Source: a phage
DNA: 64,000 nucleotides
Sequence record: MZ956761.1
Reading direction: 5' to 3' (one strand)
Part shown: positions 14,249 through 47,763 of the stretch, piece by piece
Numbering within the stretch: position 1 is the first letter of the stretch
Layout of the letters: each line of letters starts with the position of its first letter
The notes under the pieces: generated by a model
Databases searched by the model: none
Told to the model about the DNA's origin: nothing
What the model saw: the letters and a program-made list of their open reading frames with translations, nothing else
Translations under genes and position numbers: made by a program

Positions 14249-15933
14249 AGAATTTTAAACTAAACCGAGTTAGGTATCAAAATATAATGTCAGTAGGTGG
14301 AAATCCTATTGACATTCAACTAGATAAGGTTCAAAAAACTCTTATTACTGGACGAAATGGCGGTGGTAAGTCTACTATGTTAGAAGCCATCACATTTGGG
14401 CTTTTTGGCAAGCCATTTCGTGATGTAAAGAAAGGTCAATTAATAAACAGCACAAATAAGAAAGAACTTTTAGTTGAACTGTGGATGGAATATGATGAGA
14501 AAAAGTACTATATCAAAAGAGGACAAAAACCAAACGTTTTCGAAATCACCGTTAACGGTACACGTCTTAATGAATCTGCCAGCAGTAAAGATTTCCAAGC
14601 AGAATTTGAACAGCTTATCGGAATGTCATATGCCAGTTTCAAGCAGATTGTTGTCCTTGGTACAGCAGGGTATACCCCTTTCATGGGTTTGTCGACCCCT
14701 GCACGAAGAAAGCTTGTGGAAGACCTGCTCGAGGTAGGAACATTAGCTGAAATGGATAAGCTTAATAAAGCACTAATACGTGAATTAAATTCACAAAACC
14801 AAGTGCTTGATGTTAAAAAAGATAGTATTATCCAACAAATTAAAATATATAATGATAACGTTGAACGCCAGAAAAAATTAACTGGTGATAACCTTACTCG
14901 TCTACAGAATATGTATGATGATTTGGCAAAAGAAGCTAGAACGTTAAAATCGGAAATAGAAGAAGCTAATGAAAGATTAGTTAATATTGTTTTGGATGAA
15001 GACCCGACTGATGCATTTAATAAAATCGGTCAAGAAGCATTTTTAATTAAATCAAAAATTGACTCGTATAATAAAGTCATTAATATGTATCACGAAGGTG
15101 GATTATGTCCAACCTGTTTGTCACAATTAAGTTCCGGTGATAAAGTTGTTTCTAAAATTAAAGATAAAGTTTCTGAATGCACGCATTCGTTTGAACAGCT
15201 TTCAACNCNNCNNGNNNNNNNNNNAGTATNTCGTTNNTNANTNNNGNGATNNTNNNAANNNCNANNNGTNNGTTGCTTGCNNNTNNTNTGTNNCNNTNNA
15301 AANCANTNNNTNNNCACGACTGTAGATAAAGCTAAAANAGTTAAAGCAGCTATAGAANAAGCATCATCTGAGTTTATTGNCCATGCTGATNAAATNGCNC
15401 TGCTTNAAGANGAACTTGATAAAATTGTTAAGNCAAANACTAATTTNNTAATGGAAAAATNCCACNGAGGAATTTTGACTGATATGCTCAAAGATTCTGG
15501 TATTAANGGTGCTATTATTAAAAAGTACATTCCATTATTTAATAAGCAGATTAACCATTATCTTAAAATAATGGAAGCGGATTATGTGTTTACATTAGAT
15601 GAAGAATTTAATGAGACAATTAAATCCCGTGGTCGTGAAGATTTTAGTTATGCTTCATTCAGTCAAGGCGAAAAAGCACGAATTGATATTGCTCTTCTAT
15701 TTACTTGGCGTGATATTGCTGAAAAAGTTTCAGGTGTTAAAATAAACACACTAATTCTCGATGAAGTTTTTGATTCAGCAACTGATGTTGAAGGTGTAAA
15801 AGCTATTTCAACTATTTTAGATAGTTTAAAAAATACTAATGTTTTTGTTATTTCACATAGAGACCACGACCCGCAAGCATATGGTCAGCATCTTCAAATG
15901 AAGAAAGTTGGTCGATTTACTGTAATGGTTTAA
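14245..15933 (+). CDS. 46: recombination ATPase gp46 (Rad50/SbcC-like)
   Basis: 562 aa; Walker A GRNGGGKST; central part contains ambiguous bases. Confidence 0.85.
   Translation: MKNFKLNRVRYQNIMSVGGNPIDIQLDKVQKTLITGRNGGGKSTMLEAITFGLFGKPFRDVKKGQLINSTNKKELLVELWMEYDEKKYYIKRGQKPNVFEITVNGTRLNESASSKDFQAEFEQLIGMSYASFKQIVVLGTAGYTPFMGLSTPARRKLVEDLLEVGTLAEMDKLNKALIRELNSQNQVLDVKKDSIIQQIKIYNDNVERQKKLTGDNLTRLQNMYDDLAKEARTLKSEIEEANERLVNIVLDEDPTDAFNKIGQEAFLIKSKIDSYNKVINMYHEGGLCPTCLSQLSSGDKVVSKIKDKVSECTHSFEQLSXXXXXXXVXRXXXXXXXXXXXXXCLXXXCXXXXXXXXTTVDKAKXVKAAIEXASSEFIXHADXXXLLXXELDKIVKXXTNXXMEKXHXGILTDMLKDSGIXGAIIKKYIPLFNKQINHYLKIMEADYVFTLDEEFNETIKSRGREDFSYASFSQGEKARIDIALLFTWRDIAEKVSGVKINTLILDEVFDSATDVEGVKAISTILDSLKNTNVFVISHRDHDPQAYGQHLQMKKVGRFTVMV
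15207..15507. other. run of ambiguous bases (N) inside gene 46
   Basis: Scattered N characters in the sequence. Confidence 0.95.
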
Positions 15934-16186: not shown

Positions 16187-16576
16187 ATGACTAAAATTAC
16201 TGTGAATTATACTGTTGATGTAAAAGATATTCAGCCAAAACACGTGCGTTCTGAATCAAATCCACAAAACCAAAATAAAATTCGTCGAGCATGGGTTTTG
16301 TCTCTTTCTGATAACGCGATGGAAGTTATTCAGAGCAAAATTAAATCTGCACCTGCTCGTCATGCGTATTATGAAGCTATCGATCGTGAAGTAAGTAATA
16401 AATGGATTGAACTAATGCGCAAACATACGACAGAATCTTTAAATGCTGGTGCTAAATTTATTATGACTTCATGCGGTGAACGCCTTGAAGACGATTATTG
16501 TGGTAATGCAGATGAACGCCTAATTGTTGCTGCTCAAATTGTTGCGGAAACAATTGCTGCCGATTTTAATCGTTAA
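16187..16576 (+). CDS. rpbA: RNA polymerase-binding protein RpbA
   Basis: 129 aa, directly upstream of gene 45 as in T4. Confidence 0.65.
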
Positions 16577-16602
16577 TTGCTTTATTAAATTAGTTATAAA
16601 AT
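16577..16602 (+). promoter_or_regulatory. candidate middle promoter for gene 45
   Basis: TTGCTTTA 16577-16584, 12 nt spacer, TAAAAT 16597-16602. Confidence 0.45.
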
Positions 16603-16631
16603 TAAATCTCATTTGAATTGAAGGAAATTAC

Positions 16632-17318
16632 ATGAAACTGTCTAAAGATACTACTGCTCTGCTCAAAAATTTCGCTACTATTAACTCTGGCATTATGCTT
16701 AAATCCGGTCAATTTATTATGACTCGTGCAGTTAATGGTACAACTTACGCGGAAGCAAATATTTCTGACGTTATTGATTTTGATGTAGCAATTTACGATT
16801 TGAACGGTTTTCTCGGTATTCTGTCCCTAGTTAATGACGATGCAGAAATTTCCCAGTCAGAAGATGGAAATATTAAAATTGCTGATGCTCGTTCAACAAT
16901 TTTTTGGCCAGCAGCCGATCCGAGTACAGTAGTTGCTCCTAATAAACCAATTCCATTCCCGGTAGCATCTGTTGTTACTGAAATTAAAGCTGAAGACCTT
17001 CAACAGCTGTTGCGTGTATCTCGCGGTCTGCAGATTGATACAATTGCTATCACAGTAAAAGAAGGTAAAATCATAATTAACGGTTTTAATAAAGTAGAAG
17101 ATTCTGCTTTGACCCGCGTTAAATATTCTTTGACTCTTGGTGATTATGATGGTGAAAATACATTTAATTTCATTATCAATATGGCAAATATGAAAATGCA
17201 ACCAGGAAATTATAAACTTCTGCTCTGGGCAAAAGGTAAACAAGGTGCTGCTAAATTTGAAGGTGAACACGCAAATTATGTAGTAGCTCTTGAAGCTGAT
17301 TCTACCCACGATTTTTAA
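16632..17318 (+). CDS. 45: sliding clamp gp45
   Basis: 228 aa; synteny 45-44-62-regA-43. Confidence 0.9.
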   Translation: MKLSKDTTALLKNFATINSGIMLKSGQFIMTRAVNGTTYAEANISDVIDFDVAIYDLNGFLGILSLVNDDAEISQSEDGNIKIADARSTIFWPAADPSTVVAPNKPIPFPVASVVTEIKAEDLQQLLRVSRGLQIDTIAITVKEGKIIINGFNKVEDSALTRVKYSLTLGDYDGENTFNFIINMANMKMQPGNYKLLLWAKGKQGAAKFEGEHANYVVALEADSTHDF

Positions 17319-17321
17319 TAG

Positions 17322-17337
17322 AGGGCTTCGGCCCTTT
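17322..17337 (+). terminator. UUCG-loop hairpin after gene 45
   Basis: AGGGC-TTCG-GCCCTT. Confidence 0.5.
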
Positions 17338-17369
17338 ATAATTTACACTAAAACTTGAATGAGGAAATT

Positions 17370-18329
17370 ATGATTACCGTAAATGAAAAAGAACACATTC
17401 TTGAACAGAAATATCGTCCATCTACTATCGATGAATGTATTCTTCCCGCCTTTGATAAAGAAACCTTTAAATCTATTACAAGTAAAGGTAAGATTCCACA
17501 TATTATTCTTCATTCTCCTTCTCCAGGAACAGGTAAAACAACTGTAGCAAAAGCATTGTGTCATGATGTAAATGCTGATATGATGTTTGTGAATGGATCA
17601 GATTGTAAAATTGATTTTGTTCGTGGTCCTTTGACTAATTTTGCCAGCGCCGCTTCATTTGATGGTCGTCAAAAAGTAATCGTTATTGATGAATTTGACC
17701 GTTCAGGGCTAGCAGAGTCTCAGCGACATCTTCGTTCCTTTATGGAAGCTTATAGTTCAAACTGTAGTATTATTATTACTGCTAACAATATTGATGGTAT
17801 TATTAAACCGCTTCAGTCGCGCTGTCGAGTTATTACATTCGGTCAACCGACTGATGAAGATAAAATTGAAATGATGAAGCAGATGATTCGTCGATTGACT
17901 GAAATCTGCAAGCATGAAGGAATTGCTATAGCTGATATGAAAGTTGTAGCAGCTTTGGTTAAAAAGAATTTTCCTGATTTTCGTAAAACTATTGGTGAGC
18001 TCGATAGTTATTCATCTAAAGGTGTTTTGGATGCTGGTATTTTATCACTGGTTACTAACGATCGTGGTGCTATTGATGATGTTCTTGAGTCTCTCAAAAA
18101 TAAAGATGTTAAACAGCTCAGAGCTTTAGCGCCAAAATATGCAGCTGATTATTCGTGGTTCGTAGGTAAACTTGCCGAAGAAATTTATACACGCGTAACT
18201 CCGCAAAGTATTATTCGTATGTATGAAATTGTTGGTGAAAATAACCAGTATCATGGAATTGCGGCTAATACGGAATTACATTTAGCATATCTTTTCATTC
18301 AATTAGCATGCGAAATGCAGTGGAAGTGA
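17370..18329 (+). CDS. 44: clamp-loader large subunit gp44 (AAA+)
   Basis: 319 aa from ATG 17370; Walker [11 protein letters not shown]; N-terminus [17 protein letters not shown] as recalled for T4. Confidence 0.9.
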
Positions 18330-18330
18330 T

Positions 18331-18894
18331 ATGAGCTTATTTGAAGATGATATTCAATTAAACGAGCATCAAGTTGCTTGGTATTCAAAAGATTGGACAG
18401 CTGTCCAATCTGCTGCTGATTCTTTTAAGGAAAAAGCTGAAAATGAATTTTTTGAAATAATTGGAGCTATTAATAATAAAACTAAATGCTCTATTGCTCA
18501 AAAAGATTATTCAAAATACATGGTTGAGAATGCATTATCACAATTTCCTGAATGCATGCCAGCTGTATATGCTATGAATTTAATTGGATCAGGTTTAAGC
18601 GATGAAGCACATTTTAATTATCTGATGGCTGCTGTTCCTCGGGGTAAAAGATATGGTAAATGGGCAAAACTGGTCGAAGATTCTACCGAAGTATTGATTA
18701 TTAAGTTACTTGCTAAGCGGTATCAAGTTAATACAAATGATGCAATTAACTATAAATCAATTCTTACTAAAAATGGAAAACTTCCTTTAGTATTAAAAGA
18801 ACTAAAAGGTTTAGTCACGGATGATTTTTTAAAAGAAGTGACTAAGAACGTAAAAGAACAGAAACAACTCAAAAAACTAGCATTGGAATGGTAA
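18331..18894 (+). CDS. 62: clamp-loader small subunit gp62
   Basis: 187 aa, coupled to gene 44. Confidence 0.85.
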
Positions 18895-18895
18895 A

Positions 18896-19264
18896 ATGAT
18901 TGAAATTACTCTTAAAAAACCTGAAGATTTTCTGAAAGTAAAAGAAACTTTGACTCGTATGGGAATTGCTAATAATAAAGATAAAGTTCTGTATCAGTCC
19001 TGCCACATTCTTCAGAAAAAAGGACTATACTATATCGTTCATTTTAAAGAAATGCTTCGTATGGATGGCCGTCAGGTTGAAATGACAGAAGAAGATGAAG
19101 TTCGTCGTGATTCGATTGCGTGGCTGTTAGAAGATTGGGGACTGATTGAAATCGTTCCTGGTCAAAGAACTTTTATGAAAGATTTAACCAATAACTTCCG
19201 AGTTATTTCTTTTAAACAAAAACATGAGTGGAAACTCGTTCCTAAATATACGATTGGTAATTAA
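18896..19264 (+). CDS. regA: translational repressor RegA
   Basis: 122 aa, coupled to gene 62. Confidence 0.85.
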   Translation: MIEITLKKPEDFLKVKETLTRMGIANNKDKVLYQSCHILQKKGLYYIVHFKEMLRMDGRQVEMTEEDEVRRDSIAWLLEDWGLIEIVPGQRTFMKDLTNNFRVISFKQKHEWKLVPKYTIGN

Positions 19265-22275: not shown

Positions 22276-22297
22276 GGGACCTCCGGGTCCCTTTTTC
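22276..22297 (+). terminator. intrinsic terminator after gene 43
   Basis: AGGGACC-TCCG-GGTCCCT-TTTT. Confidence 0.65.
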
Positions 22298-22378
22298 ATA
22301 CAAGTAATATAAATCTATACTTATGAAAAACAGATGATTCTGGACCTTTAGAATTCCCCAAAAAATTTTCACAAAACT

Positions 22379-22408
22379 GTTTACAAGACTGTTCTTCCAT
22401 GGTACTAT
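22379..22408 (+). promoter_or_regulatory. T4-type early promoter with conserved leader
   Basis: GTTTAC 22379-22384, TACTAT 22403-22408; leader to ATG identical to 49600-49644. Confidence 0.6.
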
Positions 22409-28337: not shown

Positions 28338-28595
28338 ATGCATATCGTTTTATTTAAACCTACTCCGTATAACGTCAGGAAAAATACTCAATTCAAAGCA
28401 CTTATCGCAGATACGTGGGAATTGGTATTAGATATTCCAGCAGAAGAAAGCCCTCCATTTGGTCGAGTGGAATTTATTAAGTTTGCTGTGCGCCCTACAA
28501 AGCGGCAGATTCGCCAATGCAAAAGATACTTTCGTAAAATCGTCAAGTTAGAGAAACAGTTTGTAACATGTGATTATACAGAAGTTTTAAAATAG
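28338..28595 (+). CDS. 61.4-position protein, possibly TifA-like
   Basis: 85 aa, ATG 28338 coupled to dmd stop; name by position only. Confidence 0.45.
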   Translation: MHIVLFKPTPYNVRKNTQFKALIADTWELVLDIPAEESPPFGRVEFIKFAVRPTKRQIRQCKRYFRKIVKLEKQFVTCDYTEVLK

Positions 28596-28597
28596 CT

Positions 28598-28640
28598 GTT
28601 TACAAGCTGATAGAGTTGTGTTATAGTAATTCTATCAGCT
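28598..28640 (+). promoter_or_regulatory. early promoter embedded in 10-bp perfect inverted repeat
   Basis: GTTTAC 28598-28603, TATAGT 28622-28627, arms AGCTGATAGA 28605-28614 / TCTATCAGCT 28631-28640. Confidence 0.6.
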
Positions 28641-28658
28641 AATCGCGGAGAAAAGAAA

Positions 28659-28913
28659 ATGATGCTAGTTAATAGAGAATATCAGTTTAAATCAGAAGAA
28701 GATTTGGAAAAATTCGCGAGTGGTTGTGAACTGAATAGACGCACAGCTAAAGTCATAGGATTAAAACCCTTTACAGTTCTAGATTGTGAAGTTTCTAAAT
28801 TCCGCAGAGGGTGTTCTATTAGCGGTCATGCTCTGGTTGATGGGAACACATTTTTCTTTGTTTTTAGCGTCAGAGAACTTTTATTGATTAACGAACTTGA
28901 GGAAATAAAATAG
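28659..28913 (+). CDS. hypothetical protein (84 aa)
   Basis: ORF with GGAG RBS, own promoter-hairpin upstream. Confidence 0.5.
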   Translation: MMLVNREYQFKSEEDLEKFASGCELNRRTAKVIGLKPFTVLDCEVSKFRRGCSISGHALVDGNTFFFVFSVRELLLINELEEIK

Positions 28914-28958
28914 TTTACTTTTGTTTTAAACATGTTATTATAGACTTATCAAAACAAA
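28913..28958 (+). promoter_or_regulatory. early promoter embedded in 8-bp inverted repeat
   Basis: GTTTAC 28913-28918, TATTAT 28936-28941, arms TTTGTTTT 28920-28927 / AAAACAAA 28951-28958. Confidence 0.55.
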
Positions 28959-28977
28959 CGAGTAAATGGAGAACAAA

Positions 28978-29160
28978 ATGTCTAAAGTATCAGGTTATCA
29001 ATTATTAACACAAGAACAACGTTCAGAGATGGATTCTTTACAAGAACGGTGTCAGCATAGAAATAACGCACTTGATTCATTTTTATTAGTTGAATATGAA
29101 AACTTGTGCTCTAGACTTGAAAAAGAATATGTTCATCAACATGAAGGAGGAGAAGAATGA
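28978..29160 (+). CDS. hypothetical protein (60 aa)
   Basis: ATG 28978 after GGAG RBS. Confidence 0.45.
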   Translation: MSKVSGYQLLTQEQRSEMDSLQERCQHRNNALDSFLLVEYENLCSRLEKEYVHQHEGGEE

Positions 29161-29234
29161 AACTGAAATCACCAATTATTGCAATTTGTCTGTTTGCTTC
29201 TACTAGTGTTTACTTTTGTTGAAAATTGAGATAC

Positions 29235-29242
29235 TATAAATA
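29235..29242 (+). promoter_or_regulatory. T4 late promoter TATAAATA
   Basis: Exact TATAAATA about 22 nt upstream of the sp start. Confidence 0.6.
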
Positions 29243-29263
29243 TAAACTACTGAGGAGATTATC

Positions 29264-29557
29264 ATGAAAAAATTTGTTTTTGCTGCAATTTTTGCTTTGG
29301 CTTCTTGTACTGCTCAGCCTGCTATGGCGGGTTATGATAAAGATTTGTGTGAATGGTCTATGACTGCAGATCAGACTGAGGTTGAAACTCAAATTGAAGC
29401 AGATATTATGAATATCGTTGAGCGTGATCGTCCTGAAATGAAAGCTGAAGTGCAAAAACAGCTTAAGTCTGGTGGTGTAATGCAGTATAATTATGTTCTG
29501 TATTGCGATAAAAACTTTAATAATAAAAATATCATCGCTGAAGTGGTAGGTGAGTAA
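29264..29557 (+). CDS. sp: Spackle (Sp), periplasmic superinfection-exclusion protein
   Basis: 97 aa with signal peptide; sequence agrees with my recollection of T4 Sp. Confidence 0.75.
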   Translation: MKKFVFAAIFALASCTAQPAMAGYDKDLCEWSMTADQTEVETQIEADIMNIVERDRPEMKAEVQKQLKSGGVMQYNYVLYCDKNFNNKNIIAEVVGE

Positions 29558-29569
29558 TTAGAGGTTAGT

Positions 29570-29926
29570 ATGTATAGTTCTGAATTTTCATATTTAAAAA
29601 TGGAAAAAATTTCATACGATTTTATAGATGAAAAGGTTTATTACAGCTTCCATGAACCACGTTTTAATAGTGAGGTTGGGTTTATTGTAGTAAAAGACAA
29701 TTTCATTTTAAAAATATATTCGGCATTAAAGGATTTTCACTACGAAAATATTAACCTAAAATTTGATAAAGAAAACGTTCGTAATTGTGCAGTAACAATT
29801 ACAGGAAATAAAGGTACATGCGTTATGCTATCTGATGAAATTAATGATTTGCTAAATGATGCCGAAAAGGTTGTTGTTCCATCGATTGATGACCAAATTT
29901 TTAATGCTTTTATGAATAGAGGTTAA
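29570..29926 (+). CDS. hypothetical protein (118 aa)
   Basis: ORF. Confidence 0.5.
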   Translation: MYSSEFSYLKMEKISYDFIDEKVYYSFHEPRFNSEVGFIVVKDNFILKIYSALKDFHYENINLKFDKENVRNCAVTITGNKGTCVMLSDEINDLLNDAEKVVVPSIDDQIFNAFMNRG

Positions 29927-29927
29927 T

Positions 29928-30092
29928 ATGAAAACATATAAAGAATTTATTAAAGAAGATATGGTCGCTGGAGATTCAGGTGGTAATCCTGAAAATATCT
30001 CCACTGGAACAACGTCAGGCGCTGTAGTAAATAAAGGTCCTGAACAGATTCCTAAAAAGAAAAAAGAGGAATCTAAAGAAAAAGAAGAGTAA
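29928..30092 (+). CDS. hypothetical Lys/Glu-rich protein (54 aa)
   Basis: ATG 29928 after upstream stop; below ORF-track cutoff. Confidence 0.4.
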   Translation: MKTYKEFIKEDMVAGDSGGNPENISTGTTSGAVVNKGPEQIPKKKKEESKEKEE

Positions 30093-30094
30093 AA

Positions 30095-31123
30095 ATGTCA
30101 TCAATACCTTGGATTGATAATGAGTTTGCATACCGTGCATTAGCTCATTTACCTAAATTCGCACAAGTAAATAATAGTTCAACTTTTAAATTACGGTTTA
30201 GATGTCCTGTTTGTGGAGATTCAAAAACCGATCAAAATAAAGCCCGTGGATGGTATTATGGTGATAATAATGAAGGAAATATTCATTGTTATAACTGTAA
30301 CTATCATGCACCAATCGGAATATATTTAAAGGAGTTTGAACCTGATTTATATCGTGAGTATATCTTTGAAATAAGAAAAGAAAAAGGTAAAAGTCGTCCA
30401 GTAGAAAAACCTAAAGAACTTCCTAAACAACCTGAGAAGAAAATAATTAAATCTCTTCCGTCATGCATTAGATTAGATAAACTGGCGGAAGACCATCCAA
30501 TTATAAAATATGTAAAAGCTCGTTGTATTCCAAAGGATAAATGGAAATATCTTTGGTTTACAACTGAATGGCCTAAATTAGTTAATAGCATAGCACCCGG
30601 AACATATAAAAAGGAAATACCTGAGCCTCGTCTTGTTATTCCAATTTATAATGCTAATGGAAAAGCTGAGTCTTTTCAAGGACGTGCATTAAAGAAAGAT
30701 GCTCCTCAAAAATATATCACCATCAAAGCTTATCCCGAGGCAACAAAAATCTATGGAGTCGAACGAGTCAAAGATGGTGATGTATATGTTCTAGAAGGAC
30801 CTATAGATTCACTTTTTATTGAAAATGGTATAGCTATTACGGGTGGTCAATTAGACCTAGAAGTTGTTCCATTTAAAGATAGACGTGTGTGGGTCTTAGA
30901 TAATGAACCTCGTCACCCTGACACTATTAAACGAATGACTAAATTAGTTGATGCAGGAGAAAGGGTTATGTTTTGGGATAAATCTCCCTGGAAATCAAAA
31001 GATGTTAATGATATGATTAGAAAGGAAGGTGCAACCCCTGAACAAATTATGGAATATATGAAAAATAATATTGCCCAAGGGTTGATGGCTAAAATGCGGC
31101 TATCTAAATATGCTAAGATTTAA
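30095..31123 (+). CDS. 61: DNA primase gp61
   Basis: 342 aa; zinc ribbon CPVCGD...CYNC and TOPRIM-like core. Confidence 0.9.
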   Translation: MSSIPWIDNEFAYRALAHLPKFAQVNNSSTFKLRFRCPVCGDSKTDQNKARGWYYGDNNEGNIHCYNCNYHAPIGIYLKEFEPDLYREYIFEIRKEKGKSRPVEKPKELPKQPEKKIIKSLPSCIRLDKLAEDHPIIKYVKARCIPKDKWKYLWFTTEWPKLVNSIAPGTYKKEIPEPRLVIPIYNANGKAESFQGRALKKDAPQKYITIKAYPEATKIYGVERVKDGDVYVLEGPIDSLFIENGIAITGGQLDLEVVPFKDRRVWVLDNEPRHPDTIKRMTKLVDAGERVMFWDKSPWKSKDVNDMIRKEGATPEQIMEYMKNNIAQGLMAKMRLSKYAKI

Positions 31124-31320
31124 ATTAACCCAACCAAAGCAAATGCTAAATCTACGAATGTATCAAGAGTAATTACTGGAATATTAACACCATGAGCAAT
31201 AGCAATTGGTGATAAAACAAAATTCCAGAGTAAAATTCCTACCGTAGCAGAAATAGTAAAAGCTATACGCTTTTTATTACCTTTGATGGCATTAACAAGT
31301 GCCATTAATTTTTGTACCAT
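31120..31320 (-). CDS. hypothetical small membrane protein on the opposite strand (66 aa)
   Basis: Reverse-strand ORF with strong AAGGAGG RBS 5 nt before ATG; two hydrophobic segments. Confidence 0.5.
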   Translation of the reverse strand: MVQKLMALVNAIKGNKKRIAFTISATVGILLWNFVLSPIAIAHGVNIPVITLDTFVDLAFALVGLI

Positions 31321-31330
31321 ATGTCCTCCT

Positions 31331-31357
31331 TATTGCTTTATATATTTATTGTATAAT
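31331..31357 (+). promoter_or_regulatory. candidate MotA-dependent middle promoter for gene 56
   Basis: TATTGCTTTA box 31331-31340, TATAAT 31352-31357. Confidence 0.45.
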
Positions 31358-31391
31358 TAATCTACTAACCCATGAATTGAAAGGAAAAATA

Positions 31392-31910
31392 ATGGCTCAC
31401 TTTAATGAATGTGCTCATTTGATCGAAGGTGTTGATAAAGCAAATCGTGCATATGCTGAGTATATTATGCACAGTATTGACCCATTGCAGGTTATGCTTG
31501 ACATGCAGCGGCATTTACAGATTCGTTTGGCTAATGATAAACCAGAAACAAATCGTCATCCTGATTCACTTGAAACTGCAGGAGAAGTTCTTGCTTGGTT
31601 GCGAAACCAAGACGATTATATCGCAGACGAAACTCGCGAGCTATATACTTCTCTTGGTGGTATGAGTAATGGTGAAAAAGAAGCTTCTGCTGTATGGAAA
31701 CCTTGGAAGAAACGTTATTCTGAAATGCAATCCAAGAAAATTCAAGATTTATCTCCTGAAGATCAACTTGAAATTAAATTTGAACTAATTGACCAATTTC
31801 ACTTTTTCATGAATAAATTTATTGCTCTTGGAATGTCAGCTGAAGAAATCTTTAAACTTTATTATCTGAAAAATGCTGAAAACTTCGCTCGTCAAGACCG
31901 AGGCTATTAA
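31392..31910 (+). CDS. 56: dCTP pyrophosphatase gp56
   Basis: 172 aa from ATG 31392 with AAGGAAA RBS; N-terminus and size as recalled for T4 gp56. Confidence 0.8.
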   Translation: MAHFNECAHLIEGVDKANRAYAEYIMHSIDPLQVMLDMQRHLQIRLANDKPETNRHPDSLETAGEVLAWLRNQDDYIADETRELYTSLGGMSNGEKEASAVWKPWKKRYSEMQSKKIQDLSPEDQLEIKFELIDQFHFFMNKFIALGMSAEEIFKLYYLKNAENFARQDRGY

Positions 31911-32113
31911 TGGCTCGTTTAAATAAACGTCAGCTTAAGAAAGCCCACAAGAAACGTATTGACCAGCTATTTAAAAATTATGACAAGGAGCTCACATACG
32001 AGCTCTTATCTAATCAGCTCCACAAAGCTTACACAATTAAAACTGGACATATACCATTAGGTAAGTGGGTACATGAAGAAGCCTTAAAATTAATTGTAGA
32101 GCATTCAAAATGA
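31910..32113 (+). CDS. hypothetical basic protein (67 aa)
   Basis: ORF coupled to gene 56. Confidence 0.45.
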   Translation: MARLNKRQLKKAHKKRIDQLFKNYDKELTYELLSNQLHKAYTIKTGHIPLGKWVHEEALKLIVEHSK

Positions 32114-32319
32114 AATTTGATTTTTATGCATGGCAAAAAGCCGGGCGACCGGCTAGTCGAGCATTTGGTTCTGATGGATATAATATTAGAGCCCATTGGA
32201 AGTTTAATGCTCCAGCCGATTATTCTCCGGTAATTATTAACGGTGATGTTGTTATATTAACTAAAATTGGGTATTTTAACGTTCCGCAAGAATTTATTAT
32301 AAATAGTCATGTAATTTAA
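32110..32319 (+). CDS. hypothetical protein (69 aa)
   Basis: ATGA-coupled ORF. Confidence 0.45.
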   Translation: MKFDFYAWQKAGRPASRAFGSDGYNIRAHWKFNAPADYSPVIINGDVVILTKIGYFNVPQEFIINSHVI

Positions 32320-32335
32320 ATAAAAGGAGAATTAC

Positions 32336-32581
32336 ATGGCTAGTACTCGCGGTTATGTTAATATTAAAACATTTGAGCAAAAATTAGATGGAAATAAGAA
32401 AATTGAAGGAAAGGAAATTTCTGTAGCTTTCCCTCTTTATTCTGACGTTCACAAAATTTCTGGTGCTCATTACCAGACATTCCCTTCAGAAAAAGCAGCA
32501 TATTCTACAGTATATGAAGAAAATCAACGTGATGCATGGATTACTGCAAACGAAGATTTGTGGAAAGTAACTGGTGAATAA
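32336..32581 (+). CDS. soc: small outer capsid protein Soc
   Basis: 81 codons; sequence agrees with my recollection of T4 Soc. Confidence 0.85.
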   Translation: MASTRGYVNIKTFEQKLDGNKKIEGKEISVAFPLYSDVHKISGAHYQTFPSEKAAYSTVYEENQRDAWITANEDLWKVTGE

Positions 32582-32585
32582 ATTC

Positions 32586-32612
32586 AAGGACTCCTTTGGG
32601 AGTCCTTTTTTC
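32586..32612 (+). terminator. intrinsic terminator after soc
   Basis: AAGGACTCC-TTTG-GGAGTCCTT-TTTTT. Confidence 0.7.
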
Positions 32613-32677
32613 ATTTTACCGGTTTACTTTCCACAATGAGTATGGTATAATAGAATTATCTTATAGAGGAGATCACT

Positions 32678-32884
32678 ATGTTAAATCGCTGGATTAAACC
32701 AAATGAAGATTTAGATATTATCATTTCACGGCATGTAATGAAAAAATATGAACTACAGCCATGGTCTACAGAAGTTGTTGTGCATTCATTTATGATGTAT
32801 GCAGATGGTTCTGTCGAATTTAATGCAGAGATTCGATATGATTATGGCGAAAAGCAAGTTGAATTCAAAAGAGGCTTTTTGTAA
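32678..32884 (+). CDS. hypothetical protein (68 aa)
   Basis: ORF with GGAG RBS. Confidence 0.45.
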   Translation: MLNRWIKPNEDLDIIISRHVMKKYELQPWSTEVVVHSFMMYADGSVEFNAEIRYDYGEKQVEFKRGFL

Positions 32885-33222
32885 TGTTTATCTTTAATTG
32901 GTTTAAAAGTTTCTTTACGGATTTTTTCTCTACAACTCCTGGGGAAGGTGTAGTTCCTATTTCAAACGATTACCTTCCTTTAACTGTAGTTGAATATGTT
33001 TATATGGGAGATGGAACAGTAGAAGCAGTTACTATGACTTATGAAGAAGCCCAAGAATATTATAAAAATCCTTGGCGCTGGTCAACACCTACATCATCTA
33101 ATACGCAGAATACACAGTCTAGTTCTGATTCATATGATACCAATGTTCCTGTTCATGTATGGACAGGCGATTCATGTGGAAGTTCTTGTGATTCTAGTTG
33201 TTCATCTACATCTTGTGATTGA
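32884..33222 (+). CDS. hypothetical protein with Ser/Cys-rich C-terminal tail (112 aa)
   Basis: Tail [18 protein letters not shown]. Confidence 0.45.
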
Positions 33223-33230
33223 GGAAAATT

Positions 33231-33716
33231 ATGGAAGCGATTTTGTTTGAAATGTATATTAGCAGTAATAGTTTGTCGTTTGCTAAAGACGTTCCAATTA
33301 CCGTAGCGGTAATGATTGATAAGGGTTATTGTGACCCAATGTATCTCGTAGAAAATTTCGTTTCAATGCCAGTTCCAGAAGATGCTGAAATAAAACTTAA
33401 AAAGATTGGTATTATTGAAACTGTACCAAATATTCCATTTAGAGCAATTGAAGCATTTACTAAATCAGAATACATTAATGTTAACACAGAAAAATATAAT
33501 GATGAACCTTTATCTTTTTATTCGTACGATTCAGTATATAGTTGGAAAATAGATAAAGGAAATAAATTTATAATTGTGGACGAAGATGCTTTATCATACT
33601 TTATTTCTTCTGTATGGAATAGTTTACATCCAAATTTGCTAAAAATTCATGAATTTGATGATGCTCCTACTGTTGTTTTAGGTAAAACAAATGAAAGTTC
33701 TGAAGAAAATGCTTGA
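33231..33716 (+). CDS. hypothetical protein (161 aa), possibly Mrh by size and position
   Basis: ATG 33231 with GAGG RBS. Confidence 0.45.
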
Positions 33717-42186: not shown

Positions 42187-42611
42187 TGGCTATTAAATTT
42201 GAAGTTAATAAATGGTATCAATTTAAAAATAAACAAGCTCAAGAAAATTTTATTAAAGACCATACTGATAACGGAATCTATGCACGTCGTTTAGGTATGC
42301 ATCCTTTTAAAATTTTAGATGTTGACCATCTTGGTCGTCCTACTAAAATTGTGACATCTGCTGGCACAGTTGGATATGCAACACATGGTGATATCCTTGA
42401 CGAAAACTTTATCTGGCTTTCTACTAACGAAGCTGGGTTCTTTGATGAAGTGGAAAATCCATATCAGGCAGCTGAAGAGCAAGAGCAGGAAGAGAAAGAG
42501 CAAGAACAAATAGAAGATTTCACAGAATTCCCGGTCATGAAAGTTACTATTGAAAATAATGAACAGGCATGGTCCTTGTATCAGATGTTGAAAGCTCACT
42601 TTAAGGAATAA
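42186..42611 (+). CDS. hypothetical protein with acidic [11 protein letters not shown] segment (141 aa), goF-position
   Basis: ORF. Confidence 0.5.
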
Positions 42612-42613
42612 TT

Positions 42614-42790
42614 ATGCCAATGTATGATTATAAATGCCAATCCGAAGATTGCGGGCATGAATATGAAAAAATTAAAAAGATTTCTGAACGAGAAAATGAT
42701 GTTTGCCCTAAATGTCATCGTCTGTCTACTCGTCGGCCTTCTGCTCCTAAGCATGTGAATGGTGGATTTTACGACTTACTTAAAGGGTAA
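42614..42790 (+). CDS. FmdB-like zinc-ribbon protein (58 aa)
   Basis: YDYKCQSEDCGHEYE...CPKCH; below ORF-track cutoff. Confidence 0.45.
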   Translation: MPMYDYKCQSEDCGHEYEKIKKISERENDVCPKCHRLSTRRPSAPKHVNGGFYDLLKG

Positions 42791-42792
42791 TT

Positions 42793-43164
42793 ATGTTTAA
42801 AATCGGTAAAAAATATCGCATTCGTGAAGGTGAAGAACAGAAATATCTACTTTCTGCTAGTAATAGGAATAGTTCTATTAATGCTGTAATATTGACTAGT
42901 GAATTTATCGTTGAAGATATGAAAGGTCATAATGTTACAATGATTAGTACAGCATCTGGAAATGATGGAAAAATTCTTCATAGTTGTCAGAGTAATGTTC
43001 TAATTTATGATGAAGAATTTGACTTCTTCAAAGAAGTTTCCGAAGATTTTGATTTTGAATGTACTATTACTATGAAATCTGGTGACCCTCTTTCTTTTAC
43101 AGTTAAAGATGAAAGAAGTCGCTTGAGAATTATTAGTCTTCTTCAAGCCATTAAATTTAAGTGA
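42793..43164 (+). CDS. hypothetical protein (123 aa)
   Basis: ORF. Confidence 0.5.
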   Translation: MFKIGKKYRIREGEEQKYLLSASNRNSSINAVILTSEFIVEDMKGHNVTMISTASGNDGKILHSCQSNVLIYDEEFDFFKEVSEDFDFECTITMKSGDPLSFTVKDERSRLRIISLLQAIKFK

Positions 43165-43430
43165 AAATTATGAAATATATTAATCGTTCTATCGCAGCAT
43201 TAGTATTAGCAGTGTCTTTAGCAGGATGTACTGATGCTGATAATGCAACCAAAGTTTTGTCTTCAAGTGGTTTTACTAATATTGAAATCACTGGATACAA
43301 TTGGTTTGGTTGCTCTGAAAATGATTTCCAACACACTGGATTTCGTGCTATTGGACCTACCGGGCAGAAAGTAGAAGGAACAGTATGTTCTGGTCTATTC
43401 TTCAAGGATTCGACTATCCGTTTTAAATAA
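43161..43430 (+). CDS. putative lipoprotein (89 aa)
   Basis: Signal peptide with lipobox LAGC. Confidence 0.5.
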   Translation: MKIMKYINRSIAALVLAVSLAGCTDADNATKVLSSSGFTNIEITGYNWFGCSENDFQHTGFRAIGPTGQKVEGTVCSGLFFKDSTIRFK

Positions 43431-43447
43431 AAGGCCTTCGGGCCTTT
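43431..43447 (+). terminator. UUCG-loop hairpin
   Basis: AAGGCC-TTCG-GGCCTT. Confidence 0.5.
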
Positions 43448-43499
43448 AGCTTTATGATTATTGGAGTATAATATTCCCGAAACCAAACGAGGATAAGTG

Positions 43500-45317
43500 A
43501 TGATTAAGAATGAAATTAAAATTCTGAGCGATATTGAACATATCAAAAAGCGTAGTGGCATGTACATTGGCTCTTCAGCTAATGAAATGCATGAGCGCTT
43601 TCTGTTTGGTAAATGGGAAAGTGTTCAGTATGTACCTGGTCTTGTTAAGCTTATTGATGAAATTATCGATAACTCAGTAGATGAAGGTATTCGTACTAAG
43701 TTTAAATTCGCAAATAAAATTAATGTTACTATTAAAAACAATCAAGTAACAGTTGAAGATAACGGTCGCGGTATTCCACAAGCGATGGTTAAAACACCTA
43801 CCGGTGAAGAAATTCCTGGTCCAGTTGCTGCTTGGACTATTCCAAAAGCGGGTGGTAACTTTGGTGATGATAAAGAACGTGTCACCGGTGGTATGAATGG
43901 TGTTGGTTCTAGTTTAACTAACATTTTTTCTGTGATGTTTGTCGGTGAAACTGGCGATGGTCAAAATAATATTGTAGTTCGTTGTTCAAATGGCATGGAA
44001 AATAAATCCTGGGAAACTATTCCTGGAAAATGGAAAGGAACTCGTGTTACTTTCATTCCAGATTTTATGTCATTTGAAACTAATGAGCTGTCCCAAGTTT
44101 ATCTTGACATTACACTAGATCGTCTCCAGACACTTGCTGTTGTTTATCCCGATATTCAATTTACCTTTAATGGTAAAAAGGTTCAAGGCAATTTTAAGAA
44201 ATATGCACGCCAATATGATGAGCATGCTATTGTTCAAGAACAAGAAAACTGTTCTATTGCAGTTGGTCGTTCACCGGATGGTTTTCGTCAATTAACTTAT
44301 GTGAATAACATTCACACTAAGAATGGTGGCCATCACATTGACTGTGTTATGGATGATATTTGTGAAGACTTTATTCCACAAATCAAACGTAAGTTCAAAA
44401 TTGATGTAACTAAAGCACGTGTTAAAGAATGTTTGACTATCGTTATGTTTGTTCGTGATATGAAAAACATGCGATTTGATTCTCAAACTAAAGAGCGTTT
44501 GACTTCTCCATTTGGTGAAATCCGTAGTCATATTCAGCTTGATGCTAAAAAGATTTCACGCGCTATTCTAAATAATGAAGCAATTCTAATGCCGATTATC
44601 GAAGCTGCTTTGGCTCGTAAATTGGCGGCAGAAAAAGCAGCAGAAACTAAAGCAGCTAAAAAGGCTTCTAAAGCTAAGGTTCATAAACATATCAAAGCGA
44701 ATCTTTGTGGTAAAGATGCTGACACTACTCTTTTCTTGACTGAGGGTGATTCTGCTATCGGATATCTTATTGATGTTCGTGATAAAGAACTTCATGGTGG
44801 TTATCCATTACGTGGTAAAGTTCTCAACAGTTGGGGTATGTCTTATGCAGATATGCTTAAAAACAAAGAACTATTTGATATTTGCGCAATCACTGGTCTA
44901 GTTCTCGGTGAAAAAGCTGAAAACTTGAATTATCATAATATTGCTATTATGACCGATGCTGACCACGATGGTCTAGGAAGCATTTATCCTTCTCTGCTCG
45001 GATTTTTTAGTAATTGGCCAGAACTGTTTGAACAAGGAAGAATTCGCTTTGTCAAAACTCCTGTAATCATCGCTCAGGTCGGTAAAAAACAAGAATGGTT
45101 TTATACAGTCGCTGAATATGAGAGTGCCAAAGATGCTCTACCTAAACATAGCATCCGTTATATTAAGGGACTTGGCTCTTTGGAAAAATCTGAATATCGT
45201 GAGATGATTCAAAACCCAGTATATGATGTTGTTAAACTTCCTGAGAACTGGAAAGAGCTTTTTGAAATGCTCATGGGAGATAACGCTGACCTTCGTAAAG
45301 AATGGATGAGCCAGTAG
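43500..45317 (+). CDS. 39: topoisomerase II large subunit gp39 (GyrB-like, fused 39+60 type)
   Basis: 605 aa from ATG 43500; GHKL ATPase motifs; single uninterrupted ORF. Confidence 0.9.
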   Translation: MIKNEIKILSDIEHIKKRSGMYIGSSANEMHERFLFGKWESVQYVPGLVKLIDEIIDNSVDEGIRTKFKFANKINVTIKNNQVTVEDNGRGIPQAMVKTPTGEEIPGPVAAWTIPKAGGNFGDDKERVTGGMNGVGSSLTNIFSVMFVGETGDGQNNIVVRCSNGMENKSWETIPGKWKGTRVTFIPDFMSFETNELSQVYLDITLDRLQTLAVVYPDIQFTFNGKKVQGNFKKYARQYDEHAIVQEQENCSIAVGRSPDGFRQLTYVNNIHTKNGGHHIDCVMDDICEDFIPQIKRKFKIDVTKARVKECLTIVMFVRDMKNMRFDSQTKERLTSPFGEIRSHIQLDAKKISRAILNNEAILMPIIEAALARKLAAEKAAETKAAKKASKAKVHKHIKANLCGKDADTTLFLTEGDSAIGYLIDVRDKELHGGYPLRGKVLNSWGMSYADMLKNKELFDICAITGLVLGEKAENLNYHNIAIMTDADHDGLGSIYPSLLGFFSNWPELFEQGRIRFVKTPVIIAQVGKKQEWFYTVAEYESAKDALPKHSIRYIKGLGSLEKSEYREMIQNPVYDVVKLPENWKELFEMLMGDNADLRKEWMSQ

Positions 45318-45347
45318 TTTACTTTACCACAAGGATGTGGTATAATT
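45318..45347 (+). promoter_or_regulatory. T4-type early promoter (duplicate of 308-337)
   Basis: GTTTAC 45318-45323, TATAAT 45342-45347. Confidence 0.6.
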
Positions 45348-45371
45348 AATTGGGCAAATGAGGATATTGAA

Positions 45372-45575
45372 ATGAAATCATATAAAGTAAATTTAGAGCT
45401 TTTTGATAAAGCAGTTCATCGAGAATATAGAATCATTCAGCGCTTTTTCGATATGGGAGAAGCCGAAGAATTTAAAAACCGCTTTAAAGATATTAGAGAT
45501 AAAATTCAATCCGACACCGCAACTAAAGATGAACTACTAGAAGTTGCTGAAGTTATTAAGCGTAATATGAATTAA
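45372..45575 (+). CDS. hypothetical protein (67 aa)
   Basis: ORF with GAGGA RBS. Confidence 0.45.
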
Positions 45576-45585
45576 TGAGGAAATT

Positions 45586-47763
45586 ATGATTATCACCACT
45601 GAAAAAGAAACAATTCTTGGTAATGGTTCTAAATCAAAAGCATTTAGCATCGCAGCAAATCCTAAAGTATTTAAAATTCTATCATCTGATTTGTATACAA
45701 ACAAGATTCGCGCAGTAGTCCGTGAATTGATTACTAACATGATTGATGCCCATGCACTTAATGGAAATCCTGAAAAATTTATCATACAAGTTCCTGGACG
45801 TTTAGACCCACGATTTGTTTGTCGAGATTTTGGTCCGGGTATGAGTGATTTTGATATTCAGGGTGATGATAATTCTCCTGGACTGTATAATTCATACTTC
45901 AGTTCATCTAAGGCTGAATCTAACGATTTCATTGGCGGATTTGGTTTAGGTTCTAAATCTCCATTTAGTTATACTGATACGTTTAGTATTACTTCGTATC
46001 ATAAAGGTGAAATTCGTGGTTATGTAGCTTACATGGATGGTGATGGCCCACAGATTAAACCTACATTCGTAAAAGAAATGGGTCCAGATGATAAAACTGG
46101 TATTGAAATCGTAGTTCCAGTTGAAGAAAAAGACTTTAGAAACTTTGCTTATGAAGTTTCTTATATCATGCGACCGTTCAAAGATTTGGCTATCATTAAT
46201 GGTCTTGACCGCGAAATTGATTATTTTCCGGATTTTGATGATTATTATGGCGTAAATCCAGAAAGATACTGGCCAGATCGTGGTGGATTATATGCTATCT
46301 ATGGCGGTATTGTTTATCCTATCGATGGTGTTATTAGAGACCGTAACTGGTTAAGCATTCGCAATGAAGTGAATTACATTAAGTTTCCAATGGGTTCACT
46401 TGATATTGCTCCATCTCGCGAGGCTCTTTCACTGGATGATCGTACTCGTAAAAATATTATTGAGCGTGTTAAAGAGCTTAGTGAGAAGGCATTCAATGAA
46501 GATGTAAAACGATTTAAAGAATCCACATCTCCCCGTCATACATATCGTGAATTGATGAAGATGGGATATTCTGCTCGAGATTATATGATTAGTAATTCAG
46601 TCAAATTTACGACTAAAAATCTGTCATATAAGAAGATGCAAAGCATGTTTGAACCTGATAGTAAGTTATGTAATGCAGGAGTTGTGTATGAAGTAAATCT
46701 TGACCCTCGACTGAAGCGCATTAAGCAAAGTCATGAAACTTCAGCCGTTGCATCAAGTTATCGTCTGTTTGGTATTAATGCAACAAAGATTAATATCGTT
46801 ATTGATAATATTAAAAATCGTGTTAATATTGTCCGTGGATTAGCACATGCGTTAGATGATAGTGAATTTAATAACACTTTGAATATTCATCACAACGAAC
46901 GCCTTCTGTTTATTAATCCAGAAGTAGAATCGCAGATTGATTTGCTTCCTGATATTATGGCGATGTTTGAAAGTGATGAAGTTAACATTCATTATTTGTC
47001 AGAAATTGAAGCTTTAGTTAAAAGCTATATTCCAAAGGTAGTTAAAAGTAAAGCTCCTCGTCCTAAAGCTGCTACAGCATTTAAGTTTGAAATTAAAGAC
47101 GGGCGCTGGGAAAAAGAGGAATTATTTACGCTCACATCAGAAGCAGATGAAATTACTGGGTATGTAGCGTATATGCATCGTTCTGATATTTTCTCTATGG
47201 ATGGTACTACATCTCTTTGTCATCCATCTATGAATATTTTGATTCGTATGGCTAATCTTATTGGCATTAATGAATTTTATGTTATTCGTCCGCTTTTGCA
47301 GAAAAAGGTAAAAGAACTCGGTCAGTGCCAATGTATTTTTGAAACTCTGCGTGATTTATATGTAGATGCTTTTGATGATGTAGATTATGATAAGTATGTA
47401 GGTTATTCAAGTTCAGCTCAACGATATATTGATAAAATTATCAAGTATCCTGAACTAGATTTTATGATGAAGTACTTCAGTACAGATGAAGTTTCTGAAG
47501 AATATACACGACTCGCTAATATAGTTAGTTCATTGCGCGGCGTATATTTTAATGGTGGAAAAGATACCATCGGTCATGACATCTGGACAGTAACTAATCT
47601 TTTTGATGTATTATCAAATAATGCTTCAAAAAACAGTGATAAAATGGTTGCTGAGTTTACCAAGAAATTCCGTATTGTTTCCGACTTCATCGGATATCGC
47701 AACTCTTTAAGCGATGATGAAGTTTCCCAAATCGCTAAAACTATGAAGGCCCTTGCGGCCTAA
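45586..47763 (+). CDS. rIIA: rIIA protein (GHKL-ATPase-like N-terminus)
   Basis: 725 aa, identical in length to T4 rIIA; directly followed by a 312-aa ORF. Confidence 0.85.

Follow-up and report, generated by a model that had tools for sequence, protein, structure and literature searches.

A conserved gene for a predicted small membrane protein lies tail-to-tail with the primase gene of T-even-type phages, with or without dam

Does a T4-like phage that lacks the methyltransferase gene dam carry another gene in its place? The question is raised by a stretch of phage DNA (record MZ956761.1; 64,000 nucleotides [nt], referred to as a whole as the window) in which an open reading frame (ORF) of 66 amino acids (aa) lies on the minus strand between gene 61, encoding DNA primase, and gene 56, encoding dCTP pyrophosphatase (dCTPase). 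A preliminary description of the window, made without database searches, stated that T4 carries dam in this interval and proposed that the phage may lack Dam methylation and carry an antisense membrane gene instead. The window corresponds to Escherichia phage ADUt (OQ466432.1, Tequatrovirus), with 100% identity over positions 30000-32200 and 28500-33700, the latter being identical to positions 42483-47683 of the ADUt record. A 2.2-kb query at the locus also matched several hundred T4-like phages at 95-98% identity, T6, RB18, and PP01 included. Taking all the evidence together, we consider it highly probable that the ORF is a genuine gene of the Tevenvirinae, placed tail-to-tail with the primase gene, independent of dam, expressed late, and encoding an inner-membrane protein.

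A conserved gene convergent with the primase gene

The ORF starts with ATG and encodes the 66-aa product MVQKLMALVNAIKGNKKRIAFTISATVGILLWNFVLSPIAIAHGVNIPVITLDTFVDLAFALVGLI, and its stop codon and that of the primase gene overlap by 4 nt. Both features singled out in the preliminary description, i.e., a 66-aa ORF on the minus strand and a near-perfect AAGGAGG ribosome-binding site, were verified, with this Shine-Dalgarno (SD) sequence located 4 nt before the ATG. The ADUt record annotates the ORF as a hypothetical protein (WFG41893.1), one of 2 coding sequences (CDS) on the minus strand among the 100 annotated at 13990-63900, in agreement with the earlier remark that the early region lies almost wholly on the plus strand. 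As an antisense ORF of 95 aa is present inside the primase gene in the ORF listing, the 66-aa length by itself is within chance; the ribosome-binding site, the synteny across genera, and the purifying selection are beyond it.

A tblastn search detected the ORF in 694 phage records, comprising 503 at at least 80% identity and 191 at about 50% identity. In each of the six genera concerned (Tequatrovirus, Mosigvirus, Karamvirus, Kanagawavirus, Jiaodavirus, and Dhakavirus), the ORF and the primase gene are convergent without exception, and metagenomic contigs carry proteins 52-68% identical at the same position beside the primase gene. The possibility that the ORF is noise absent from relatives is refuted by these 694 records. 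Across the six genera, the ORF length (59-69 aa), the SD sequence, and the start are kept, and every ortholog examined retains the SD sequence as AGGAGG, AAGGAG, or a GGAGG-like variant.

The pattern of substitution is that of a protein under constraint. More specifically, the ratio of nonsynonymous to synonymous substitution rates (dN/dS, Nei-Gojobori) within Tequatrovirus is 0.12-0.35, and between genera the proportion of synonymous differences (pS) is saturated at 0.70-0.77, versus a proportion of nonsynonymous differences (pN) of 0.25-0.35. In a 15-sequence alignment, four residues (K16, W32, N33, and G44) never vary and five more (N15, P38, A42, P48, and D53) hardly do; even the remotest representatives retain the motif W-N-[FY]...P...A.G...P.[VI].[LM][DE]. 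Because synteny is maintained in six genera and the amino acids are conserved while synonymous sites are saturated, we conclude from this comparative evidence that the ORF is a real gene, predicted to encode a small membrane protein, of the T-even-type phages (Tevenvirinae).

The family to which the product belongs is already catalogued. It matches PHROG 2024 (function unknown) at E=7.5e-31, with residues 2-66 aligned to positions 1-65 of the 65-position profile, and the PHROG 2024 and "hypothetical protein" entries of Tequatrovirus, Mosigvirus, and other Tevenvirinae represent the same family in the same position and orientation, with no difference from the gene studied here. Database names of the orthologs are "hypothetical protein," "putative membrane protein," and, in one UniProt entry, an unsupported "Holin." Thus, the gene is catalogued as hypothetical in hundreds of genomes, is uncharacterized in the literature that we found, and is absent from the T4 reference annotation. 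The family has very few members: searches of two sequence collections, conducted with the single sequence first and then with alignment profiles, yielded 43 clusters at 90% identity among 5.8 billion sequences and 10 representatives at 50% identity among 1.84 billion. All members with a traceable source derive from T4-like phages, without a link to a larger family, and a scan of IMG/VR returned five near-identical loci and no others. One protein recovered from a Logan contig (P0043) departs from the Tequatrovirus consensus almost exclusively through C-to-T-type changes (A>V, S>F, P>L, H>Y, and T>I), which suggests an assembly of bisulfite-treated or deaminated reads and not a real variant.

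dam and the variable slot beside the gene

The statement that T4 carries dam between genes 56 and 61 is correct: in NC_000866, gene 61 is at 17935-18963, dam at 16846-17625, and gene 56 at 16270-16785, giving the order 61 - dam - 56. In the window, the gap between the end of gene 61 (31123) and the start of gene 56 (31392) measures 268 bp, close to the approximately 270 bp given earlier, and so there is no room for a methyltransferase between the two genes. To cover the entire genome, we reconstructed ADUt (166,904 bp) from the window and the remainder of the record. On this genome, the best tblastn E values for T4 Dam and Escherichia coli Dam were 1.0 and 0.15, respectively, versus 5e-180 and 8e-21 for the same queries on the T4 locus, which served as a positive control. 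The motif [DNS]PP[YFW] occurs five times in long open frames of the ADUt genome, in no case in a methyltransferase-like context. ADUt therefore has no dam elsewhere, and the suspicion that the phage lacks Dam is borne out by the absence of both a Dam homolog and a plausible DPPY-type motif.

The further proposal, that the membrane gene is carried instead of dam, is refuted. T4 itself has the ORF at NC_000866 17738-17938, between gene 61 and dam and on the strand opposite to both; there it is unannotated, lying in a 309-bp "intergenic" space, and the 1984 record X01416 likewise holds no feature for it. The T4 and ADUt products differ at four amino acids. The ORF and dam also occur together in T2 and ESh17, and T6, RB18, PP01, and many other phages are colinear with the dam-less arrangement, so that relatives have the ORF both in the presence (e.g., T2) and absence (e.g., T6 and RB18) of dam. 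The ORF is independent of dam. T4-type Dam (at least 90% identity) was found in 182 phage records, versus 503 for the ORF (at least 80% identity), and dam is missing from about two thirds of the Tequatrovirus records that have the locus. Judged from these records, absence of dam is the commoner state among the closest relatives of T4 and is not peculiar to ADUt; a literature search on the distribution of dam among T-even phages returned nothing usable. The ORF appears as the constant neighbor of the primase gene and dam as variable accessory cargo, and so the ORF does not replace dam.

This cargo occupies a slot between the ORF and gene 56. In T4, T2, and ESh17, dam lies there; in the ADUt interval, the gene 56 promoter is the only element besides the 66-aa ORF. 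The slot (31321-31391 in the window) is empty in ADUt, where it holds just that promoter, as well as in T6 and Mosigvirus JK42. Its content in other phages is dam alone (T4), a 181/186-aa ORF followed by dam (T2 and ESh17), a 101-aa ORF (Karamvirus CkP1), a MazG-like gene (Kanagawavirus KLB31), or MobE (Dhakavirus VR5). From these comparisons, dam is one of several alternative inserts in the slot across the Tevenvirinae, and its absence from one phage is unremarkable. We considered whether the dam-less state could have arisen from the T4 arrangement by one deletion between short repeats and rejected this possibility, as the junction sequences do not fit.

The 181/186-aa ORF lies directly upstream of dam in T2 (locus L016, 1865-2410) and ESh17 (locus L002, 1921-2481), and T4 retains a remnant comprising its last 23 codons only (locus L003, 3143-3211). 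It contains a PD-(D/E)xK-like stretch (FDIVIS...IIEIKHQ) and gave weak, sub-threshold Pfam matches (E~0.01) to the restriction-nuclease families DpnII, BanI, and HSDR_N; possibly it once served dam as a GATC restriction partner and has since decayed.

Promoters and neighboring features

Upstream of the ATG, where ADUt has the sequence acAATAAATAtataaagcaatAAGGAGGacatATG, lies a box resembling the late promoters of T4 (Table 1). A box of the form xATAAATA is found 12-22 nt upstream of the ATG in seven of nine lineages, with flanking sequences that are otherwise unrelated: it reads GATAAATA in T4 and T2, AATAAATA in contig L009, Mosigvirus, and Dhakavirus, and CATAAATA in Kanagawavirus and Jiaodavirus. 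The box is common to dam-containing and dam-less contexts, the flanks of which diverge from the SD sequence outwards. Among 50 late promoters of T4, 32 match TATAAATA perfectly, and A at -13, which occurs in 9, is the commonest variant (Geiduschek and Kassavetis, PMC2988020), and T at -13 is poorly conserved among T4-like phages (Nolan et al., PMC1524935). The sequence ATAAATA occurs 12 times on both strands of the 64-kb window, and the layout [T/A/G]ATAAATA plus SD plus ATG is confined there to sp (spackle), soc, holin gene t, and the 66-aa ORF. The minus strand has three box-SD-ATG sites, heading the 66-aa ORF, holin gene t, and an ORF beginning MADLK, putatively the tail-fiber gene 36.

Strand polarity likewise argues for gp55/gp33/gp45-dependent late transcription, since early and middle transcripts of T4 are all of one polarity and late ones may be of either (PMC2988020). 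A consensus scan of the minus strand revealed no sigma-70-like promoter upstream of the ORF. Given the conserved TATAAATA-type box at about -13 to -6, shortly upstream of the SD sequence and ATG, the box-SD-ATG layout, the polarity opposite to early and middle transcripts, and the lack of a sigma-70 promoter, we infer that the ORF is probably a gp55-dependent late gene. Its transcript would start near 31337; gp55-RNA polymerase would transcribe it at late times only, from the AATAAATA promoter lying 22 nt before the ATG, with translation then proceeding from the strong SD sequence.

On the opposite strand, the same DNA carries an element for gene 56 that resembles a middle promoter. It corresponds to P(M)16.53 of T4 (features in X01416), which drives gene 56 and primes oriA; positions 31352-31441 of ADUt are 91% identical to the region that precedes gene 56 in T4. 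The late box of dam-less phages falls within the spacer of the middle promoter, such that the two promoters overlap back to back. Approximately 900 bp separate them in T4, and so any interplay between the promoters is not a conserved feature. A terminator-like hairpin of the early strand lies about 160 nt past the primase stop codon, inside the 5' coding part of the 66-aa ORF, and represents a possible attenuator after gene 61. Its predicted folding energy is -16.3 kcal/mol in ADUt and T2, and it is weaker in T4. It is not kept in Mosigvirus or Karamvirus, and we rejected it as a conserved feature, since it is limited to Tequatrovirus.

Table 1. Genes and sequence elements at the gene 61-gene 56 interval, in window positions
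Feature	Position	Strand	Description or basis
Gene 61, DNA primase	30095..31123	+	Convergent neighbor of the 66-aa ORF
CDS of the 66-aa predicted small membrane protein	31120..31320	-	ORF listing, ADUt annotation, PHROG match, selection, synteny
Terminator-like hairpin	31283..31308	+	11 pairs, loop AACA, then TTTTTG; consensus scan
Shine-Dalgarno sequence AAGGAGG	31325..31331	-	4 nt upstream of ATG, from sequence
Middle-promoter-like element for gene 56	31332..31357	+	Mot box ATTGCTT 31332-31338, 13-nt spacer, -10 TATAAT 31352-31357
T4 late-promoter-like box AATAAATA	31343..31350	-	TATAAATA with A at -13; ends 22 nt before ATG
Gene 56, dCTPase	31392..31910	+	

Several observations concern the surroundings and the source record. 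The other minus-strand CDS among the 100 mentioned above is a 34-aa ORF at 22296-22400 of the window, just after the DNA polymerase gene; it has no SD sequence, late box, or hydrophobic character and is probably a spurious call. Past gene 56, the interval up to soc (31910-32319) contains two small ORFs of 67 and 69 aa in ADUt, one matching PHROG 5782 ("virion structural protein") and the other annotated soc.1; in T4, the corresponding position is occupied by the homing endonuclease gene segF. The sole mismatch between the window and the ADUt record is a partly N-masked stretch at about 15207-15507 (98 N characters), within the "recombination-related endonuclease" of ADUt (WFG41866.1), where the window is 6 bp longer. 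Many product names in the ADUt record are apparently wrong, e.g., about ten consecutive CDS are all named "thioredoxin," and "molybdenum ABC transporter ... ModA" is applied to small ORFs beside the ADP-ribosyltransferase genes modA and modB.

The predicted protein and its possible role

Kyte-Doolittle means over 19 residues reach 1.6-1.9 across residues ~18-42 and ~45-66, matching the two hydrophobic segments of the preliminary description, and the protein is hydrophobic throughout residues ~19-66. An AlphaFold2 model built from the 15-sequence alignment (mean predicted local distance difference test score, 80.6) contains helices at residues 2-12, 16-42, and 52-63. Hydropathy and the model helix 16-42 agree on at least one transmembrane domain, and we infer a membrane topology with a single clear transmembrane helix and, at the C-terminal end, a shorter hydrophobic segment. 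The C terminus (...DLAFALVGLI) has no charged tail.

On this model, the product would be an inner-membrane protein of 59-69 aa, organized as follows: (i) a short, basic N-terminal helix (KGNKKR), expected to be cytoplasmic (N-in), with its basic cluster next to the membrane; (ii) a transmembrane helix of about 27 residues with the conserved Trp-Asn at its middle; (iii) a conserved turn (His-Gly/Pro) and the motif W-N-[FY]-x4-P-x3-A-x-G-x3-P-x-[VI]-x-[LM]-[DE]; and (iv) a short, acidic-hydrophobic C-terminal helix, probably in or at the membrane. Scans against Pfam and NCBIfam (E<=10) gave zero matches, a profile search of PDB sequences gave noise alone (YejA at E=1.7), and a Foldseek comparison of the model with BFVD recovered orthologs, weak relatives from Karamvirus-type phages, and nothing else.

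Such a protein would act at the cell envelope in the late phase of infection. Its likeliest roles would be to modulate, as a small protein, some process at the membrane (e.g., the timing or inhibition of lysis) or to take part in late superinfection exclusion, exerted through self-association via intramembrane polar residues or through binding of a membrane partner. We hold a late envelope-associated accessory function of this kind with low confidence, and any specific envelope function is speculative. Imm, Ac, and RI are small inner-membrane proteins of T-even phages with accessory, envelope-related roles, and the ORF product is likewise a predicted small T-even inner-membrane protein. Imm, however, is an early gene on the early strand, whereas the ORF lies on the opposite strand and is probably late. 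We dropped paralogy with Imm or other small membrane proteins, as the ADUt genome contains no paralog of the ORF (best non-self tblastn match, E=0.41).

An alternative is that the protein is a holin-, pinholin-, or antiholin-like regulator of lysis, which either oligomerizes and depolarizes the membrane or tunes holin T. Like holin T of T4 and the class II holins or pinholins, such as S68 of phage 21, it is a predicted late-promoter-driven membrane protein opposite early genes, and its similar size, basic N terminus, and hydrophobic helices, together with a late-promoter layout identical to that of holin gene t in the same window, fit this view; the "Holin" name of one UniProt ortholog probably stems from transmembrane content alone. 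Nevertheless, the product shares no sequence or profile similarity with these holins: no holin family of Pfam, NCBIfam, or PHROG matches it, and orthologs alone came from BFVD. The charged, hydrophilic C-terminal tail of holins is missing, since the protein ends in ...ALVGLI, and its second hydrophobic segment is short and acidic. The locus is also not a lysis cassette, as the neighbors are primase and dCTPase and the lysozyme and spanin genes lie elsewhere in ADUt, and the Met1/Met6 pair has no conservation beyond Tequatrovirus. Moreover, the known lysis set of T4 (t, e, rI, rIII, and the spanins) is already complete. We therefore regard a holin-like regulator as unlikely.

Alternatively, the ORF could be incidental and the conserved object DNA or RNA: a terminator of the early strand after gene 61, a late transcript antisense to the 3' end of that gene, or both. 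The minus strand has no terminator past the ORF, such that a late transcript would continue into gene 61 in antisense, and the early-strand hairpin with its T-run does lie inside the ORF. However, the amino acids are conserved between genera whose synonymous sites are saturated, the length, SD sequence, and start of the ORF are kept in all six genera, and the hairpin does not extend beyond Tequatrovirus. In addition, no Rfam family matches the locus (a scan of 30900-31600 at E<=1 returned one chance microRNA match). An antisense role could coexist with coding, yet it cannot account for constraint at the protein level, and we judge an RNA-only explanation very improbable. Equally improbable is a type-I-toxin-like hydrophobic peptide, the mRNA of which would be restrained by complementary transcripts of the early and middle classes running from gene 61 into gene 56. 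The protein is small and hydrophobic, and the entire mRNA has its complement in the early-strand transcription unit, with a 5' end overlapping the gene 56 middle promoter region. However, the consensus and Rfam scans revealed no dedicated antisense small RNA promoter, fold, or family (only the ordinary early-strand unit is complementary), this arrangement is general for late genes embedded in early regions of T4, the product does not resemble Hok, Ldr, TisB, or other families, and post-segregational logic is inapplicable to an obligately lytic phage.

Some of the data weigh against the account that we prefer, i.e., a late gene for an inner-membrane protein acting at the envelope. Within Tequatrovirus alone, a small sample, variable columns number 8, 3, and 12 at the three codon positions (p=0.07), a weak bias, and so the cross-genus comparison carries the argument for a gene. 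The late box is poorer in two lineages (TATTAATA in contig L012 and ATTAAATA in CkP1), and the T4 box GATAAATA, with a single deviation, is a putative promoter. A literature search found no RNA 5' end, ribosome profiling (Ribo-seq), or proteomics data for the ORF. Two Asp residues lie in the second hydrophobic segment, which the model renders as a helix of only 12 residues, leaving the topology uncertain. Finally, Pfam, NCBIfam, PDB, and BFVD provide no tie to lysis, exclusion, or another process, and lysis genes are not nearby.

The boldest version of this account, that a gene overlooked for 40 years in the reference annotation of T4 encodes a late-phase envelope effector that either regulates the timing or inhibition of lysis or serves late exclusion, is one to which we give little credence. 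If it were true, occupancy of the late promoter in dam-less phages could also help to shut off transcription of the origin primer from the gene 56/oriA middle promoter.

T4 is among the best-annotated viruses, yet missing from its reference record is a gene that shows purifying selection, has a fixed place and orientation in six genera, and is preceded by a putative late promoter of typical form and a strong ribosome-binding site. Adding the gene to the T4 list would provide a defined target for knockout and localization studies and could bear on screens that rely on the annotation, such as CRISPR interference, proteomics, and transcriptomics. The finding is of modest interest as it stands, and would be more so if a late envelope function were demonstrated.

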